Shown one piece after another: positions 5,092 to 19,963 of a stretch of 19,963 nucleotides of DNA. Within the stretch, counting starts at the first letter, position 1. Every line of letters starts with the position of its first letter. The stretch lies in UHGV virus genome UHGV-1527372; one strand, 5' to 3'. This stretch comes from a virus. Made by a program: the position numbers and the translations under genes. The notes under the pieces were generated by a model. That model did not search any database, had not been told where the DNA came from, and was given only the letters and a program-made list of their open reading frames with translations.

Positions 5092-5485
5092 TTACAGCCC
5101 GATTGCGCGGCGGTGCTGTTCCAGACGGTCGACGCCGTTCACCTTCTCAACCATGTTGACGGTATCGATTTCGATGACGTCGCTACCATCAATCGTGAGG
5201 CGGTAATAGGTGCATACGGTCGACAGTTTGGTCGAGGTGTTTTCACCCTGCTTATTCTCGCCGCCGTCGATTTCTTTATGACGGCCACGCATGACCACCT
5301 CGACCGCCACGATTTCGCCAGTGTCGTCACGTTGGTAAGAGCCAGCAAAACGCAACGGCACAGCGTCAGCACCCGGCGCGGCGTACTGCGCCCACAGCGC
5401 CACATCAGGCAGGCCACCGACAGACCACTCGACGGTTACCGTCGTTAATCTCAAGCACCTGCACGCCGTGGTGAAAATCACTCAT
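5092..5485 (-). pseudogene. FI/FII: Deletion-fusion remnant: first ~18 codons of tail sheath FI fused out of frame to the C-terminal ~112 codons of tail tube FII
   Basis: ATG at 5485..5483 encodes MSDFHHGVQVLEINDG (P2 FI N-terminus) and then hits a stop after ~10 junk codons. In another frame, from about 5430, the sequence encodes EWSVGGLPD...VNGVDRLEQHRRAIGL (C-terminal two-thirds of FII). There is no sheath-sized ORF anywhere in the window. Confidence 0.7.
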
Positions 5486-7295: not shown

Positions 7296-7900
7296 GCGTT
7301 CACTCTCAGGTTATCAATCAAATGGATGGCCGAGGCCGGGTAATATTCACCGCCGACGACAATTTCCTCAGGGGTGTAGGGGTAAACGGTCAGCGCGTCG
7401 CCGTCGTAACATCCCGCGCCGACATACAGCTCGCCGGTCGCACTCAGGCTGATAGCCAGCCCTGTCAAATGACGGCTTGCCGGTTTGGCGTCTTCAATCA
7501 GGCGCTCAAGCTCCTGATACATTTCGTCAGTGATGCCGCTATCGAGCACGCCGACAACGAGGCGGAATGTGCCAGGCTCCTCGTCGAGCTGCCACCACTC
7601 GCGCACCTCAATCAGAAAACCGAGCGGCTCAACCACCCGACGCAATGCGCTGATGGTGCCTTTGTGCTGATGGACGAAAAACGAAGACGCGCAGACGCTG
7701 CGCTTTGTCGCCTCCGGCCACTTCTCATCCCACCGGTCGACCGACAGCGCCCACGCCAGATACGGCAGCAGGTTTACCGGGCAGGTACGCCAGTTCCACA
7801 GGGTGCGCAACGGTACCGGCACGCGCTGAATCTCAGAAAGTGCAGCAGCGGCGGCAACTTCCAGCGGCGACGAGCCAGCGGGTAACAGCCTGTCACTCAT
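7292..7900 (-). CDS. I: Baseplate protein I
   Basis: 202 aa starting MSDRLLPAGSSPLEVAAA with WNWRTCP and RWDEKWPEATKR motifs; stop overlaps H start, start overlaps J stop. Confidence 0.9.
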   Translation of the reverse strand: MSDRLLPAGSSPLEVAAAAALSEIQRVPVPLRTLWNWRTCPVNLLPYLAWALSVDRWDEKWPEATKRSVCASSFFVHQHKGTISALRRVVEPLGFLIEVREWWQLDEEPGTFRLVVGVLDSGITDEMYQELERLIEDAKPASRHLTGLAISLSATGELYVGAGCYDGDALTVYPYTPEEIVVGGEYYPASAIHLIDNLRVNA

Positions 7901-8801
7901 CCGATCCCCCGATAGTTATCTGGTACTCGGTGCAGTTCGACGCCTGCGACTTACTCAGCACAATGTCGGCCTGCGGTGATGCCAGCTCGACACGCTGTAC
8001 CCCCTCAACATGCAGCGCCGCGTAAATGGCTGACAGTCGAATATCACGCCCGAGACGGTGCTGCGCACTGATGTAGCTCTTCAGCTTCTGCTCTGATGCC
8101 TGCCTGATGGGCTCAGACTCCGGGCCGGGGTAAACGTAGAGCGTTGCGTCAATCTGGTAGGGCACAATCTCGGCTGACTGGACGGTAACCCGGTCAGCCA
8201 CCGGGCGCACATCTTCGGCGTTCAGCGCTTTATCAACAATCGCCAGTAGTTCAGGGCTGGCAGTGCCGTCACCCTCGCGCGATAGCACGGTAATCGTCAC
8301 GCAGGCTGGCGACGGACTTGCGACCGAGACGTCAGCGACCCGCCCGTCGGCGCTGCGACCGTGATACTCATATGCGCCGACCGGACCCGCCACGCTCAAC
8401 CCCTCAAACGCCTGTTGCGTGCGCAGTCGCAGGTCAGTATCAGATTCCATAACGGCAGGTGTCGGCGGGATGGTGGTGTCATCCGCCGGGGTGATGGTCA
8501 GGCGTTCGGTATTGTTGTTCCCTGCCACGACGTCGAGGTCGTTACCGGCGGAGTAGGCCAGCGTCACTGCCTGCGCTGCTTCGTTCACCCGCTGACGCCA
8601 GATAACTTCACGGTAGGCGTTTTCCTGCAGCAGCTTAACAATCGGCTCTGACTCAAGTGTGAGCGTCCGGGCAATGGCCTCCTGTTGGTCTTCGGGATAG
8701 AGCGAAATCAGCGTCGCAATGCGTTCCGCAAGGATAGTTTCATAGTCCAGTTCCTCAACCACATCGGGAACGGGTAACTGACTCAGGTCAACGGTTGCCA
8801 T
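7893..8801 (-). CDS. J: Baseplate assembly protein J
   Basis: 302 aa, synteny W-J-I, ATG start 10 nt after the W-frame TAA. Confidence 0.9.
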   Translation of the reverse strand: MATVDLSQLPVPDVVEELDYETILAERIATLISLYPEDQQEAIARTLTLESEPIVKLLQENAYREVIWRQRVNEAAQAVTLAYSAGNDLDVVAGNNNTERLTITPADDTTIPPTPAVMESDTDLRLRTQQAFEGLSVAGPVGAYEYHGRSADGRVADVSVASPSPACVTITVLSREGDGTASPELLAIVDKALNAEDVRPVADRVTVQSAEIVPYQIDATLYVYPGPESEPIRQASEQKLKSYISAQHRLGRDIRLSAIYAALHVEGVQRVELASPQADIVLSKSQASNCTEYQITIGGSDE

Positions 8802-8807
8802 AGTGAT

Positions 8808-9370
8808 TTAACTCAGTGAAACAGTGGTTGAAACTGACGCACCGGTATCGGTACGCATCCCGGTAATATCGACATACATTTCGCCAGCGTCGCCGGTCTC
8901 AAAGTTGATGGCGGTAAGCCTGATGCGCGGCTCCCACTTCTGGATACCAGCGGTACGGTTGCAGTGATGGACTCCGATGCCGTCACGTCGGCAGTTTTGA
9001 TACCGCTGACCGTCAGCGCGCCGGTCTCGGGCTCGTACTCAATGACCGCACCATCAGGGAAAGCCACATGCCACGCATCCGCCGAGGCAGACGGGGCGGG
9101 GTTATCGTCGGAGAAAATACCCGGCAGCACGAAAGCGGTATCAAGCTCGCCACCGATTGCCAGCAGCAGAACCTGCTCACCGACCGAGGGAGCCCACCAC
9201 GTCCGCGAACGACCGGCGCGGGTGGTCAGCCAGTTCAGCCATGTAGTCTGGATCCCGCCGCTTTGTACGCGGCACAGCCCCTGCACGGTATCAACCTCAG
9301 TCACCACACCTGAGCGGATGAGGTTGCGAATCGCACGTGCGAGCTCCTGTATCGTGGATAACGTATTCAT
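8808..9370 (-). pseudogene. V/W: Deletion-fusion remnant: N-terminal ~142 codons of baseplate spike V fused out of frame to the last ~45 codons of baseplate protein W
   Basis: ORF begins MNTLSTIQELARAIRN...GIKTADVTASESITATVPLV (V-like) then runs into ~40 junk codons. A different frame encodes IQKWEPRIRLTAINFETGDAGEMYVDITGMRTDTGASVSTTVSLS* (gp25/W-like C-terminus) ending at TAA 8808-8810 just before J. Only ~570 nt lie between the V start and the J start, where V plus W would need about 1 kb. Confidence 0.65.
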
Positions 9371-9438
9371 AGTGCAAGGATGCCTCTGGTCTGGAGTCGC
9401 GCCAATTCGCGCGGCTCCGGTGGTGGTTCACACAATAT

Positions 9439-9888
9439 TTATTTACCGAGATGCCTGATAATGACGTCTTCAATCATCTGCTCATCGTCGCGGGTGAAAC
9501 CGAGTAACGGGCGCGCCTCGTACTGCACATCCCGGCTGTTGCGGTTTGGTCTGTCTTTGAGCCCGTACTGATGCACCCGCGCCATGCGCTGCACCTTGCC
9601 GGTAAACTCCACCACCGCCGCACTGTCGCTGCCTTTGGCTTTCATAAAGCGACTGGTGCGCAGTTTGGCGAACATTTCACGTTTAATCCGACCTTTCTTG
9701 TTCCTCACCGGCTGGCGCTTTCGTGCCGCATACGGGGTGCCGTCTGGTGCCTGCTGGCGCTTGATACGCTGTTGCTGACTGGTACGCAGCTTTTTCGCAA
9801 TCTCAGCCGCCATTTGCCTACGCGTCGCCGATGACAGGCTGGCAATCAGACCGGCAAGGCGTTCCTGCAGTGCGGTTAACTCACTCAT
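9439..9888 (-). CDS. S: Tail completion protein S
   Basis: 149 aa, start overlaps R stop (ATGAGTGA), synteny R-S-V. Confidence 0.85.
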   Translation of the reverse strand: MSELTALQERLAGLIASLSSATRRQMAAEIAKKLRTSQQQRIKRQQAPDGTPYAARKRQPVRNKKGRIKREMFAKLRTSRFMKAKGSDSAAVVEFTGKVQRMARVHQYGLKDRPNRNSRDVQYEARPLLGFTRDDEQMIEDVIIRHLGK

Positions 9889-10357
9889 CCCACTTACTCA
9901 CCAGTTCGCCGTTAACGTACAGCTCGACCGGGCGCGTCACCGGCTCAGGCAGCGGCGGCTCAGGGGCATAGCTGACATGCAGCGCGCCGTCGACCTCTTT
10001 GACGAGCGTGCGCTCGGTGAGCCTCAGGCTGATACTGATATCGAGCGAATCGTCGTTATTGATATCAATAATCCAGGTGAATCCTTTTTCCCGCCCGTCG
10101 TCGGTGGTCATAATGTCCGGCTGATGTTCACGCAGCCACGCCTGCACCGGCACGAATATCAAATCAAGGTCACCGGTGAAGTCGGTCACCAACACGTTAA
10201 GCACGTACACCTTTTCAAACGACAGCGAGCTCGCCAGTCTGGAATCGGTATGGCCGTTGTCGGCAAAAAGGCGCAGCATATCGGGGTTGTTTCGGAGCTG
10301 CGGCACGGCGTTAATCAGCGCTTTGCGCAGGCTTTTGTGCTTCTGCATCGAGTTCAT
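9881..10357 (-). CDS. R: Tail completion protein R
   Basis: 158 aa with FEKVYVLNVLVTDFTGDLDLIFVP and NGELVSKWDE matching P2 gpR as recalled; true start may be the internal Met at codon 4. Confidence 0.85.
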   Translation of the reverse strand: MNSMQKHKSLRKALINAVPQLRNNPDMLRLFADNGHTDSRLASSLSFEKVYVLNVLVTDFTGDLDLIFVPVQAWLREHQPDIMTTDDGREKGFTWIIDINNDDSLDISISLRLTERTLVKEVDGALHVSYAPEPPLPEPVTRPVELYVNGELVSKWDE

Positions 10358-10601
10358 CCTGACAGTGTTTGACGGTTTTGACCTGTAGCGCGCAGGCGAT
10401 CAGCGCGCCCTCAAGGCGGCGGATATCTGCGCTCAGGTCACCATTGGTTTTCGGGTCACTTCCCGGCATCGGGCAAAGGCTCACTCTCGGGCATCCGTTG
10501 ACCACAATCACCGGCGCTGGCGCAGGCGGTGCGGATGTGCAACCGACGCACAACATCAGGTAAAGCAGCGTTATACCAGCGGCGAAAGGCTTCATTTTCA
10601 T
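10311..10601 (-). CDS. lysC: LysC (Rz1-like o-spanin lipoprotein), nested out of frame in the 3' end of lysB
   Basis: 96 aa with signal peptide, Cys-containing lipobox-like LCVGC and a Pro-rich mature part (SAPPAPAPVIVV); overlaps lysB in a different frame as in P2. Confidence 0.7.
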   Translation of the reverse strand: MKMKPFAAGITLLYLMLCVGCTSAPPAPAPVIVVNGCPRVSLCPMPGSDPKTNGDLSADIRRLEGALIACALQVKTVKHCQDELDAEAQKPAQSAD

Positions 10602-10869
10602 TAAGTAACCTCGTTATTGATTGCTCGCGGCGGCTGGCTTCCTCGCTGGCCTTTGCGAGCTGTTCACGCAGTGCCACCTGGGCAGATTCATTACGTCTGG
10701 CAAGCTGACCGGCAACACTGAGCTGATTTTTCAGCATGCCAATCGTCGTCTTTTGTTCGCTCGCGACGCGGTTTGCTGTCTCAAAGGAGCGGGATAAATT
10801 GCCGTTCTCATGGCGCAACCACAACATCCCGAGCACAGTCAGCACCAGAAGTGTAATCAGGATTTTCAT
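10456..10869 (-). CDS. lysB: LysB (Rz-like i-spanin)
   Basis: Starts MKILITLLVLTVLGMLWL (N-terminal TM) followed by a coiled-coil periplasmic domain; its ATG overlaps the K stop (ATGA). Confidence 0.8.
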   Translation of the reverse strand: MKILITLLVLTVLGMLWLRHENGNLSRSFETANRVASEQKTTIGMLKNQLSVAGQLARRNESAQVALREQLAKASEEASRREQSITRLLNENEAFRRWYNAALPDVVRRLHIRTACASAGDCGQRMPESEPLPDAGK

Positions 10870-11363
10870 TCCATTACCCCGCCAGCGGTGCGCCATACGG
10901 TGACCAGTTTATCGAGGCTGTGCTCACGTTGGCCGTAACCGGCACCCGGTAACGACGCCCAGATATTGCGGCACCGTGAAATTGCCCGCTCAATACGCCC
11001 CGCCTTAATATCCTCAATGGCACCGCGTTCGCGGATTAACTGAATCGCAAGTTTGTCCTGCGACAACGGGCTGAAATCAGACAATGCGAGTTGTTTCTGA
11101 TAATGCGGCCAGTAGAGATAAAGCTGCTGGTAACGCCCTGATGCCGTGGATTTTTCGCCGCGTCGATTAAACACTTTCGCTGGTCTGCCATGTGCGAAAG
11201 GGTGGTCGGTGTAGTCGGTGAAAATTTCCGGTTTGCCATCAAGGCCAGTGACAATGACGTCGTAACCACGATTTTTCGTCAGCGGATGCGTCGCCGTCCC
11301 TTCGGAATAGGCCAGCATGTCCAGAAATGCGGCGATATTCTGGTGAGTATTAATGACCGGCAT
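10866..11363 (-). CDS. K: Endolysin K (phage lysozyme)
   Basis: MPVINTHQNIAAFLDMLAYSEGTATHPLTKNRGYDVIVTGLDGKPEIFTDY... is near-identical to P2 K as recalled; start taken at the internal ATG at 11363. Confidence 0.9.
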   Translation of the reverse strand: MPVINTHQNIAAFLDMLAYSEGTATHPLTKNRGYDVIVTGLDGKPEIFTDYTDHPFAHGRPAKVFNRRGEKSTASGRYQQLYLYWPHYQKQLALSDFSPLSQDKLAIQLIRERGAIEDIKAGRIERAISRCRNIWASLPGAGYGQREHSLDKLVTVWRTAGGVME

Positions 11364-11646
11364 CGCTATCCCCCTGTTGTGACTTAAAGCGGCGCTGAAT
11401 GGCAATTTCTACCACCTGATAACCTGCAATGCCGAGCATGGATCCAATCCCACAAACGGCAGGCAGTGACATATCTGGAAACTGCACCAGAACAACACCG
11501 GCGACCATTGAAACAAAACCGCCGAGCAGCATGCGGCCGATAAACAGGCGCGGGGTAATGGGCTCACCACCCGCCAGCACTTTTCCGACAACAATCATCA
11601 CGCCAATCACAAACAGTGACAGGACGCCTTTTTCCCCTTCTGTCAT
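11350..11646 (-). CDS. Y: Holin Y
   Basis: 98 aa with hydrophobic TM segments, GGGAG RBS, position between X and K. Confidence 0.85.
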   Translation of the reverse strand: MTEGEKGVLSLFVIGVMIVVGKVLAGGEPITPRLFIGRMLLGGFVSMVAGVVLVQFPDMSLPAVCGIGSMLGIAGYQVVEIAIQRRFKSQQGDSDAGH

Positions 11647-11649
11647 GGT

Positions 11650-11853
11650 TTACTCCCAAAGGTTGATAGTTTCTGTTACGGGTGACGATGCCACGTCGGG
11701 CAGGTCAATCGCCGTGCCATGCGGCAGAATGACGCCCAGCTCAGACAGACCGGGATTAGCCTGCAGCACCGTCTCGACCACGCCCTCAGTGCGCCCGTAA
11801 TACCGGGCGCAAAGCGCGTCGAGGGTGTCGCCCTGCATCGCGTAGACTTTCAT
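11650..11853 (-). CDS. X: Tail protein X (LysM-like)
   Basis: MKVYAMQGDTLDALCARYYGRTEGVVETVLQANPGLSELGVILPHGTAIDLPDV... matches P2 X as recalled; start at internal ATG 11853, overlapping the L stop. Confidence 0.85.
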   Translation of the reverse strand: MKVYAMQGDTLDALCARYYGRTEGVVETVLQANPGLSELGVILPHGTAIDLPDVASSPVTETINLWE

Positions 11854-12362
11854 CAGAGCTGACCCACGATGCAGCGCGGCTTGTCCTGCAGACGCGAGAC
11901 CGACCAGCGCATATCCCGCCACAGGTCATCAATGGTGGTTTCGACGCTGTCGGCTTTTTTGTCACCCTTGCCCGTGGCCTCAACCCCGCGATAACGCTCA
12001 TACAGGGTGGCGGTCGCCATCGCCGTCACGGCGCTGAGGTAGTGGAAAACGCGCACATTCTCGCCGTCGATTTCCTCGGCGTCAGGCACGTCGGCCAGTG
12101 TCTTAAACCCTGCGGCAATCTGGCGCAGCCGGTAGTCGTAAAGCTCCGCATTGGTTTCCGCCATGCCGGTCTTGATGGCGTTGCGCAGGCGCGCATCGGA
12201 AACCGTCTGCTCAAGGCGCATCAGTTCGCGCACCCGCTTCGGATCCACATCAGGGAAAAAGAACGTGTTTTTAATCACTGCGTCGCCCGTCTCCGGTGCG
12301 GGAATCACCACGCCCGGTACGTCCTGCGGTTCGTCGGGCTGATTCAGTATTACTGTCGTCAT
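11853..12362 (-). CDS. L: Head completion/stabilisation protein L
   Basis: 169 aa, GAGG RBS, synteny M-L-X. Confidence 0.85.
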   Translation of the reverse strand: MTTVILNQPDEPQDVPGVVIPAPETGDAVIKNTFFFPDVDPKRVRELMRLEQTVSDARLRNAIKTGMAETNAELYDYRLRQIAAGFKTLADVPDAEEIDGENVRVFHYLSAVTAMATATLYERYRGVEATGKGDKKADSVETTIDDLWRDMRWSVSRLQDKPRCIVGQL

Positions 12363-18190: not shown

Positions 18191-18200
18191 TCACCTTTTA

Positions 18201-18225
18201 AGCCGCCATTTTGGCGGCTTTTGCT
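18201..18225 (+). terminator. Intrinsic terminator after Q
   Basis: AGCCGCC-ATTTT-GGCGGCT followed by TTTTGCT, 10 nt after the Q stop. Confidence 0.65.
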
Positions 18226-18228
18226 ATG

Positions 18229-18453
18229 TTAGCCTTTAGACTTTTTAGGATCATCTTTTCTCTGATAAGTGCGTTCTTCCTGAATTTTCCCATCTTCCTT
18301 GTGAATTTTGACCGAGCCTGTTTTGTTCGACATAAACTCAGATGTTGTTTTAATCAGCTCGGCCTTTGTGGGCGCGGTCTTGCTAGGGCGGTCATTGCCC
18401 TCTTTTTGCAACTTCCACTTATCGCCATCTTTTGTAATATGATAGTTATCCAT
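18229..18453 (-). CDS. DUF2188-like small protein (moron between portal gene and cos)
   Basis: MDNYHITKDGDKWKLQKEGNDRPSKTAPTKAELIKTTSEFMSNKTGSVKIHKEDGKIQEERTYQRKDDPKKSKG fits the DUF2188 pattern as recalled. Strong GGAGG RBS 5 nt upstream of the ATG at 18453. Markedly AT-rich compared with the phage backbone. Confidence 0.6.
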   Translation of the reverse strand: MDNYHITKDGDKWKLQKEGNDRPSKTAPTKAELIKTTSEFMSNKTGSVKIHKEDGKIQEERTYQRKDDPKKSKG

Positions 18454-18546
18454 TAAAGCCTCCAACTGTTGTGGGGAACATAAAGTCTCAATATGGATAT
18501 TAGCCAAAGCGAAACCGTAAAATTGTGCAACTGATCCCATCCTTTA

Positions 18547-18646
18547 GCACCACGCCACAGACGCACCACGCGCCCACGATCACACCCGGCCACTACAGCG
18601 CCGTCACGACGTTCTCAGACGATAATTTTTAATAATACGCACCACC
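18547..18646. repeat. Three GCACCAC(G/C) direct repeats flanking the cos side (candidate terminase recognition elements)
   Basis: GCACCACG at 18547-18554 and 18563-18570, GCACCACC at 18639-18646, all within about 110 bp of the cos core. Confidence 0.3.
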
Positions 18647-19259: not shown

Positions 19260-19328
19260 CTAACGCCTCGCGTAGCTCGTTGTTCAACCCCGCCAGACCT
19301 GAAAGCGAGTTTCAGCTCCGGCGGCGTT
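19260..19328. repeat. 69-bp structured direct repeat, copy 1
   Basis: About 85% identical to 19665-19733; contains the CTGAAA-N5-TTTCAG palindrome inside a longer imperfect stem; begins 2 nt after the stop of the 69-aa ORF on the minus strand. Confidence 0.75.
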
Positions 19329-19664: not shown

Positions 19665-19733
19665 CTAGCGCCTCGCGGTGCGAGTTGTTCAACCCCGCCA
19701 GCACTGAAAGCAAGTTTCAGCACCGGCAGCGTT
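19665..19733. repeat. 69-bp structured direct repeat, copy 2
   Basis: Same element as 19260-19328, with an additional small hairpin CTCGC-GGT-GCGAG; begins 2 nt after the stop of the partial ORF. Confidence 0.75.
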
Positions 19734-19735
19734 TG

Positions 19736-19963
19736 TTAATGCAGCCAGCTATCGTCCTCCCATACCTGCTGCATGATTTCCATTACTCGTTTTTTATCTT
19801 CGTCCAGTTTCAAACCGCTTAGTTCAACGCCATTAGCGGAGCCCTTGCGAATTCGGATAGCAGTCTTTGGGTAAATAGGTTGAAGATTGCGGTACAGTTC
19901 AGCCTCAAGGTAATGACTCCAACTTATTGATAGTGTTTTATGTTCAGATAATGCCCGATGACT
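19736..19963 (-). CDS. Partial gene (C-terminal 75 codons; start lies beyond the window end), unknown function
   Basis: Open frame from the window edge, ...YLEAELYRNLQPIYPKTAIRIRKGSANGVELSGLKLDEDKKRVMEIMQQVWEDDSWLH*, ending at TAA 19736-19738. Not reported in the ORF track because its start is outside the window. Confidence 0.5.
   Translation of the reverse strand, partial: SHRALSEHKTLSISWSHYLEAELYRNLQPIYPKTAIRIRKGSANGVELSGLKLDEDKKRVMEIMQQVWEDDSWLH

Follow-up and report, generated by a model that had tools for sequence, protein, structure and literature searches.

A 417-bp deletion fuses the baseplate spike gene V out of frame to the end of W in an apparently defective P2-family prophage

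Phage P2 cannot do without its baseplate spike gpV, as growth of a Vam mutant fails on a host lacking a suppressor; the dispensable part of the protein is limited to its apex (residues 191-211), which carries the HxH iron cage of His197 and His199 (bioRxiv 10.1101/2023.02.25.529910). In the P2 baseplate, gpW lies in the core of every wedge and acts as the sheath initiator; contacts with gpX, gpJ, gpI, and the sheath are made by its N-terminal loop together with a helix-loop-helix domain spanning Glu20-Trp74 (bioRxiv 10.64898/2026.09.14.750843). In the related phage Midge, V encodes 211 aa and W 115 aa; W starts at an ATGA that overlaps the V stop and is read in a different frame.

We have analyzed a stretch of 19,963 nt of viral DNA, called the window throughout, which by gene order and alignment is the late region (structural and lysis genes) of a 186/PSP3-like prophage of the P2 family (Peduovirus). 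From its low end, the window carries ogr, D, U, T, E, truncated FII/FI, G, H, I, and J, mostly on the minus strand, followed by the V/W lesion described below, S, R, the lysis genes, X, L, M, N, and O, with P and Q on the plus strand. This is the conserved late order of the P2 family, Q-P / O-N-M-L-X-lysis-R-S-V-W-J-I-H-G-FI-FII-E-T-U-D-ogr. The phages vB_EcoM-613R3, SW9, Midge, and PSP3 aligned with 84-88% of the window at 89-95% identity, and a prophage of E. coli FDAARGOS_1253 aligned with 97% of the window at 98.3% identity.

The FDAARGOS_1253 prophage is located directly after rplS, and the prophage represented by the window is likewise integrated beside rplS, with E. coli or Shigella as host. 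In the lineage to which the window belongs, the host flank of the longest contig was 99.8-100% identical to the E. coli rplS-trmD-rimM region and about 94% identical to Salmonella-type loci; the rplS-rimM flank thus points to E. coli/Shigella rather than Salmonella, and no finer. Base 1 of the window is the base next after the rplS stop codon, which suggests that the window starts at a gene-boundary cut, made for example by a provirus-calling step, and not at a natural contig end. The ogr protein was found in more than 9000 blocks of the collection; the ten places returned all carried intact FI and FII and lay outside the lineage of the window.

The features that matter for the lesions and their intact neighbours are as follows.
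8946 to 9370, minus strand: remnant of V (baseplate spike), codons 1-141 plus 2 nt, with the OB-fold domain and the beginning of the beta-helix preserved.
8813 to 9370, minus strand: 185-aa fusion ORF, V residues 1-142 followed by 43 out-of-frame residues across the W remnant.
8808 to 8945, minus strand: remnant of W (gp25-like sheath initiator), codons 71-115 plus the TAA stop, in a frame other than that of V.
8945 to 8946, no strand: V/W deletion junction, 417 bp missing as compared to intact relatives, with a 2-nt TA common to both parental breakpoints.
7893 to 8801, minus strand: J (baseplate), intact, 302 aa, of the same length as in intact relatives, Pfam Baseplate_J E = 7e-23, directly downstream of the lesion.
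9439 to 9888, minus strand: S (tail completion), intact, 149 aa, equal in length to Midge S, upstream of V, Pfam Phage_tail_S E = 2e-39.
5437 to 5438, no strand: FI/FII junction, a 1319-bp deletion as compared to the FDAARGOS_1253 prophage, with a TA overlap.
19910 to 19963, plus strand: terminal 54 nt of IS1 inside the prophage dinI-like gene, the third lesion.

The deletion at V/W was mapped with Midge, RCIP0057, and the FDAARGOS_1253 prophage as intact references. V and J start with ATG at 9370 and 8801, both on the minus strand, and their starts are 570 nt apart as compared to 986 nt in Midge (531 to 1517 of the Midge locus). When aligned with Midge and RCIP0057 by MAFFT, the window lacked a single uninterrupted block of 417 columns. 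A blastn comparison with the intact FDAARGOS_1253 locus placed the break as in the MAFFT alignment, with window position 8946 corresponding to 11765 and 8945 to 12181; the repeat at the breakpoints consists of the 2-nt TA only. The junction is contained in the 25-mer CCGCTGGTATCCAGAAGTGGGAGCC. That this is a deletion is far beyond chance. Since its size of 417 bp is a multiple of three and the frames of V and W differ, the V frame continues into W in the wrong frame. An internal deletion has placed the last 45 codons of W, out of frame, behind the N-terminal two thirds of V.

The loss in V begins at the third base of codon 142 and comprises the C-terminal 70 residues, among them the HxH apex that binds iron; this greatly exceeds the 21 residues of the P2 apex. 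In Midge, the deleted part reads ...LVKASTS...GKVLHTHKHPGDSGGQTGAPI and contains the HTHKH motif. The fusion ORF was identical to Midge V at 141 of residues 1-142 (99%) and unrelated beyond; it matched P2 gpV (PDB 3QR8) over residues 1-147 of 211 only (E = 1.3e-70). The complete trimeric beta-helix and the HxH iron-cage apex are absent from the V of the window, as the 3QR8 match ends at residue 147. Pfam PF04717 (Phage_base_V) was found at residues 20-86 of the fusion ORF (E = 6.6e-19; 68.5 bits, cut-off 23.8), and the last 43 residues were without a Pfam family match; the ORF ends with a TGA at 8813-8815, 11 nt upstream of the J start. Residues 1-142 are thus colinear with P2 gpV and its orthologues in 186, PSP3, and Midge, and the gene occupies the same slot between S and W/J in the late operon, but in contrast to P2 gpV residues 142-211 (the C-terminal half of the beta-helix and the apex) are missing and 43 wrong-frame W residues stand in their place.

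The frame at 8808-8945 was identical to Midge W residues 70-115 at 43 of 46 positions (93%) and closes with the regular W stop codon, which lies 6 nt ahead of J. In these respects it resembles the P2 gpW/T4 gp25 family; unlike a family member, it retains only 45 of 115 codons and has no start. Pfam PF04965 (GPW_gp25) aligned with profile positions 56-92 of 96 at 17.6 bits and remained below the gathering threshold of 27.2. The start that would overlap the V stop (ATGA) is absent, being deleted together with codons 1-70. Translation of the W frame met an upstream stop and showed no ATG, GTG, or TTG before an internal Met about 22 codons from the stop, and the ORF list of the window held no minus-strand ORF of at least 30 aa ending at 8808. 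The W remnant is therefore untranslatable for want of a usable start. The deletion of W residues 1-70 takes away the N-terminal loop and, with residues 20-70, almost the entire helix-loop-helix domain.

A sequence-only reading had described this place as a second lesion of the tail module in which V is fused out of frame to the C-terminus of W. It was based on about 570 nt between the V and J starts where an intact pair would need about 1 kb, on an ORF that is V-like for about 142 codons and then leaves the frame, and on a W/gp25-like C-terminus in another frame at 8808-8945. DNA and protein alignments agreed with this description throughout, each of the two frames matching its own family part (Midge V, Midge W, and 3QR8). 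We assign a probability of about 0.93 to the account that 417 bp were lost recently, in a single deletion and in one clonal lineage, from V and W of a P2-family prophage; one spontaneous event of this size would have removed V codons 142-211 and W codons 1-70.

The second internal deletion of the window allowed us to compare two junctions. At FI/FII, the sheath gene FI is joined after 47 nt (codon 16) out of frame to codon 58 of the tube gene FII, so that FI is largely lost and FII lacks its first third. The joint, CGACGGTTACCGTCGTTAATC on the plus strand of the window, shows either the perfect 2-nt TA or an imperfect 5/6 homology of CGGTTA with CGGGTA. The two deletions have in common a joint with a 2-nt overlap, which is compatible with illegitimate (microhomology-poor) end joining or with replication slippage rather than with a programmed event. 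The junction data are consistent with illegitimate joining that needs little or no homology and do not distinguish between mechanisms.

Two motifs had been proposed for the junctions by the sequence-only reading. The 11-mer TACCAGCGGTA is indeed present at 8945-8955 on the plus strand and contains the inverted repeat TACC-AGC-GGTA; however, this repeat is the remainder of a GTACC-GCT-GGTAC already present in intact V. DNA folding at the junction gave z = -0.01, and the junction together with the four parental breakpoints ranged from z = -0.44 to +1.09, no better than shuffled sequence. A hairpin promoting the deletion was rejected on the grounds that the repeat is ancestral V sequence without significant folding. 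The hexamer ACGGTT does lie near both junctions: at 5432-5437 it overlaps the FI/FII junction, and at 8955-8960 its start is 9 nt from the V/W junction. Each strand of the window contains it six times, where 4.8 occurrences are expected; for randomly paired 30-nt windows, a hexamer in common is found in 16% of pairs on the same strand and in 28% on either strand. The hexamer is therefore at chance level and was rejected as a common junction motif. Additionally, in vitro engineering by blunt joins of the HpaI/RsaI type was considered by eye; it fits the FI/FII junction and not the left breakpoint at V/W, and the occurrence of the lineage in several metagenomes, from gut and elsewhere, makes engineering implausible.

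A resemblance of another kind was observed between the two junctions. On the plus strand, both read GG[T/A]TA|CC, within 5432-5444 and 8940-8953 (ACGGTTACCGTCG and CTGGATACCAGCGG). Both right-hand parental sites contain GTAC (GGGTACC and CAGTACC), and the left parent at FI/FII is the palindrome GTTAAC. Simulated random deletions had an overlap of at least 2 nt in 16% of cases, which amounts to about 2.6% for two such events; among simulated pairs of deletions with a 2-nt overlap, 0.37% matched at six or more of the central seven positions, a value that refers to two events and a frame chosen post hoc. The likeness is at best a weak oddity (n = 2, post hoc p about 0.004), although a purely random process does not seem to explain it. 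One might propose that a single sequence-directed break-and-join activity (a nuclease, topoisomerase, or transposase acting at TA- or GTAC-centred sites), combined with end joining, made both deletions: the same TA overlap, the GG[T/A]TA|CC reading of both junctions, the GTAC sites and palindrome, and the small simulated fractions speak for it. We consider it unlikely. There are two events only, and with the 7-nt frame picked post hoc the true p is several-fold larger; neither junction shows the footprint of an IS or a recombinase; the deleted DNA is ordinary phage coding sequence found in all relatives; no breakpoint has significant secondary structure, and ACGGTT is at chance level. Furthermore, a hotspot was not apparent, with no other V/W deletion among the E. 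coli relatives listed.

Single-deletion decay, which we prefer, has consequences for the tail. The product of the fusion ORF would be a 185-aa protein that retains the N-terminal OB-fold domain of the spike and lacks both the iron-binding apex and the C-terminal half of the trimeric beta-helix. By analogy with P2, loss of W would leave the phage without a baseplate core and without sheath initiation. With the V/W lesion and the 1319-bp FI/FII deletion, the prophage is presumably unable to build tails. A defective prophage is one in which a virion-essential gene is disrupted; here V and W are truncated and FI/FII are fused. The prophage appears to be a defective one, a well-known kind of object, and the V and W remnants are fragments of well-characterised proteins, neither fragment showing the defining features of a functional family member. 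Recent loss-of-function decay of this kind is an ordinary and already known phenomenon. As a practical matter, the 185-aa "baseplate assembly protein V" in metagenome protein catalogues is the product of a pseudogene, and the prophage should be scored as defective. Its importance beyond annotation is small.

Tail loss could also have been favoured by selection, either with the host keeping useful prophage functions without producing infectious virions or with the element persisting as a head-only parasite of co-resident P2-like tails. Both internal deletions indeed lie in tail genes, with head, packaging, lysis, and the other tail genes intact, and the doubly deleted form was found in several samples. 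Yet some 40% of a genome of this kind is devoted to the tail, so that by a rough estimate two hits would both fall among tail genes in about one of six cases; D, U, T, E, G, H, I, J, R, S, and X are still intact, which looks like early decay and not like streamlining; the near-identity of the contigs points to one clone whose spread can be hitch-hiking; and the lesions of a related, decaying prophage at the rplS site are of quite another kind (see below). Selected inactivation is thus quite unlikely. Very unlikely in our judgement is the combined proposition that the two deletions are not independent, owing either to one TA/GTAC break-and-join activity or to a prophage reduced to head and lysis functions and completed by the tails of a co-resident P2-like phage.

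The related prophage just mentioned is that of E. coli ETEC1716 (NZ_CP122880.1 1283030-1312656). It shares with the window the rplS site, the gene order, and the phage family, and it likewise shows few discrete lesions including an IS1. In contrast to the window, its IS1 lies between N and O, its V is annotated as a pseudogene without a C-terminus, its replication endonuclease gene is frameshifted, and W, FI, and FII are intact. We had considered it as an intermediate, as its match ran into IS1; this was rejected because the IS1 is at another site and the lesions are different. Decay of this prophage by other lesions indicates that such decay is commonplace and not site-specific.

The deletion is genuine and not an assembly artefact, as independent assemblies demonstrate. 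In public assemblies, 11 contigs encode the exact 185-aa fusion protein. The seven contigs that were fetched from Logan and ENA derive from different samples and represent MEGAHIT-style k119, SPAdes NODE, and Qin-type scaffold assemblies; all seven contained the junction 25-mer and were 99.98-100% identical to the window over 1.2-19.4 kb. The three contigs reaching the FI/FII site also carried the 1319-bp deletion (129-aa Phage_tube ORF). The chance that 417 bp are really present and were collapsed by an assembler is practically negligible: the window resembles a draft contig ending inside IS1 and some junction contigs are of low coverage (e.g. cov 2.07 in ERZ1745288), but the identical junction recurs in the seven contigs across samples and pipelines, and the 2-nt overlap offers no repeat at the breakpoints able to cause a collapse. 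An assembly error, which the sequence-only reading had named as a way in which it could fail, was thus not what was found.

The lesion is fixed in one clonal E. coli/Shigella lineage that occurs in several samples from gut and other metagenomes. The remaining late genes of the window are all full length as compared to intact prophages, and the identity of the flanking DNA to an intact prophage reaches 99.98% (the first 5.4 kb of the window, by blastn); the decay is therefore recent. All contigs of the lineage stop at IS1, the longest at about the end point of the window; the terminal 54 nt of IS1 begin with GGTAATGACTCCAACTTATTGATAG. Because the window ends in IS1, nearly all complete E. coli genomes (5147 of 5426) and many plasmids match it. 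The lineage may serve as a clean and datable example of the first steps of prophage decay, with two internal deletions and one IS1 insertion, and the junction 25-mer as a specific marker for tracing the E. coli/Shigella clone in metagenomes.

The layout was also sought in relatives. Among phage records, the best 25 of 182 matches aligned with the 1001-bp query as two pieces over 1418-1425 bp and carried annotations for V, W, and J, and the close phage relatives listed had a full V of 211 aa and a separate W of 115 aa. In 5426 complete E. coli genomes, 70 loci matched the junction region, 60 of them covering at least 80% of the query; the rows listed for these 70 showed the intact span of 618-619 bp in two pieces, and none of them showed the junction in one piece. 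A perfect one-piece match would have topped the ranking of these E. coli matches. Sampled rows of 191 E. coli V-W loci were single colinear pieces. Exact 40-mer and 25-mer junction scans found no match in GTDB representative genomes, IMG/VR, or JGI metagenome contigs; the scans are sound, since the pattern matches the window and the seven related contigs. The V/W deletion thus seems to be confined to the window's own lineage. That some functional phages of this group naturally possess a short V and no separate W, which the sequence-only reading had named as the finding that would overturn it, is hardly conceivable: although dispensability of the P2 spike apex in the laboratory means that some C-terminal shortening of V is tolerated, the related functional phages listed all have the 211-aa V and 115-aa W, the junction is absent from the best phage matches and from the IMG/VR, GTDB-representative, and JGI metagenome records, the final 43 residues of the ORF are wrong-frame W without a family match, and the loss of 70 V residues and 70 of 115 W residues goes far beyond a 21-residue apex.

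Some further observations concern regions outside the lesions. An Rfam scan of the window gave zero matches. Between the portal and dinI-like genes, a 69-nt direct repeat is present at 19260-19328 and 19665-19733; the copies are 86% identical and 405 nt apart, and each contains a CTGAAAGC.AGTTTCAG hairpin without an Rfam match. The spacer between V and S (9371-9499) is short in the window and in Midge; its place is taken by a gene for a pentapeptide-repeat protein in the FDAARGOS_1253 prophage and by a gene for a 347-aa hypothetical protein in that of ETEC1716. This spacer looks like an insertion hotspot for cargo (moron) genes. Downstream of the portal gene, the region 18191-18586 is unrelated to the matching 1.2 kb of the FDAARGOS_1253 prophage and is another cargo swap; the mechanical ORF list shows a minus-strand ORF of 103 aa at 18229-18540, and the gene at this place in a sister contig encodes 74 aa with a DUF2188 match.
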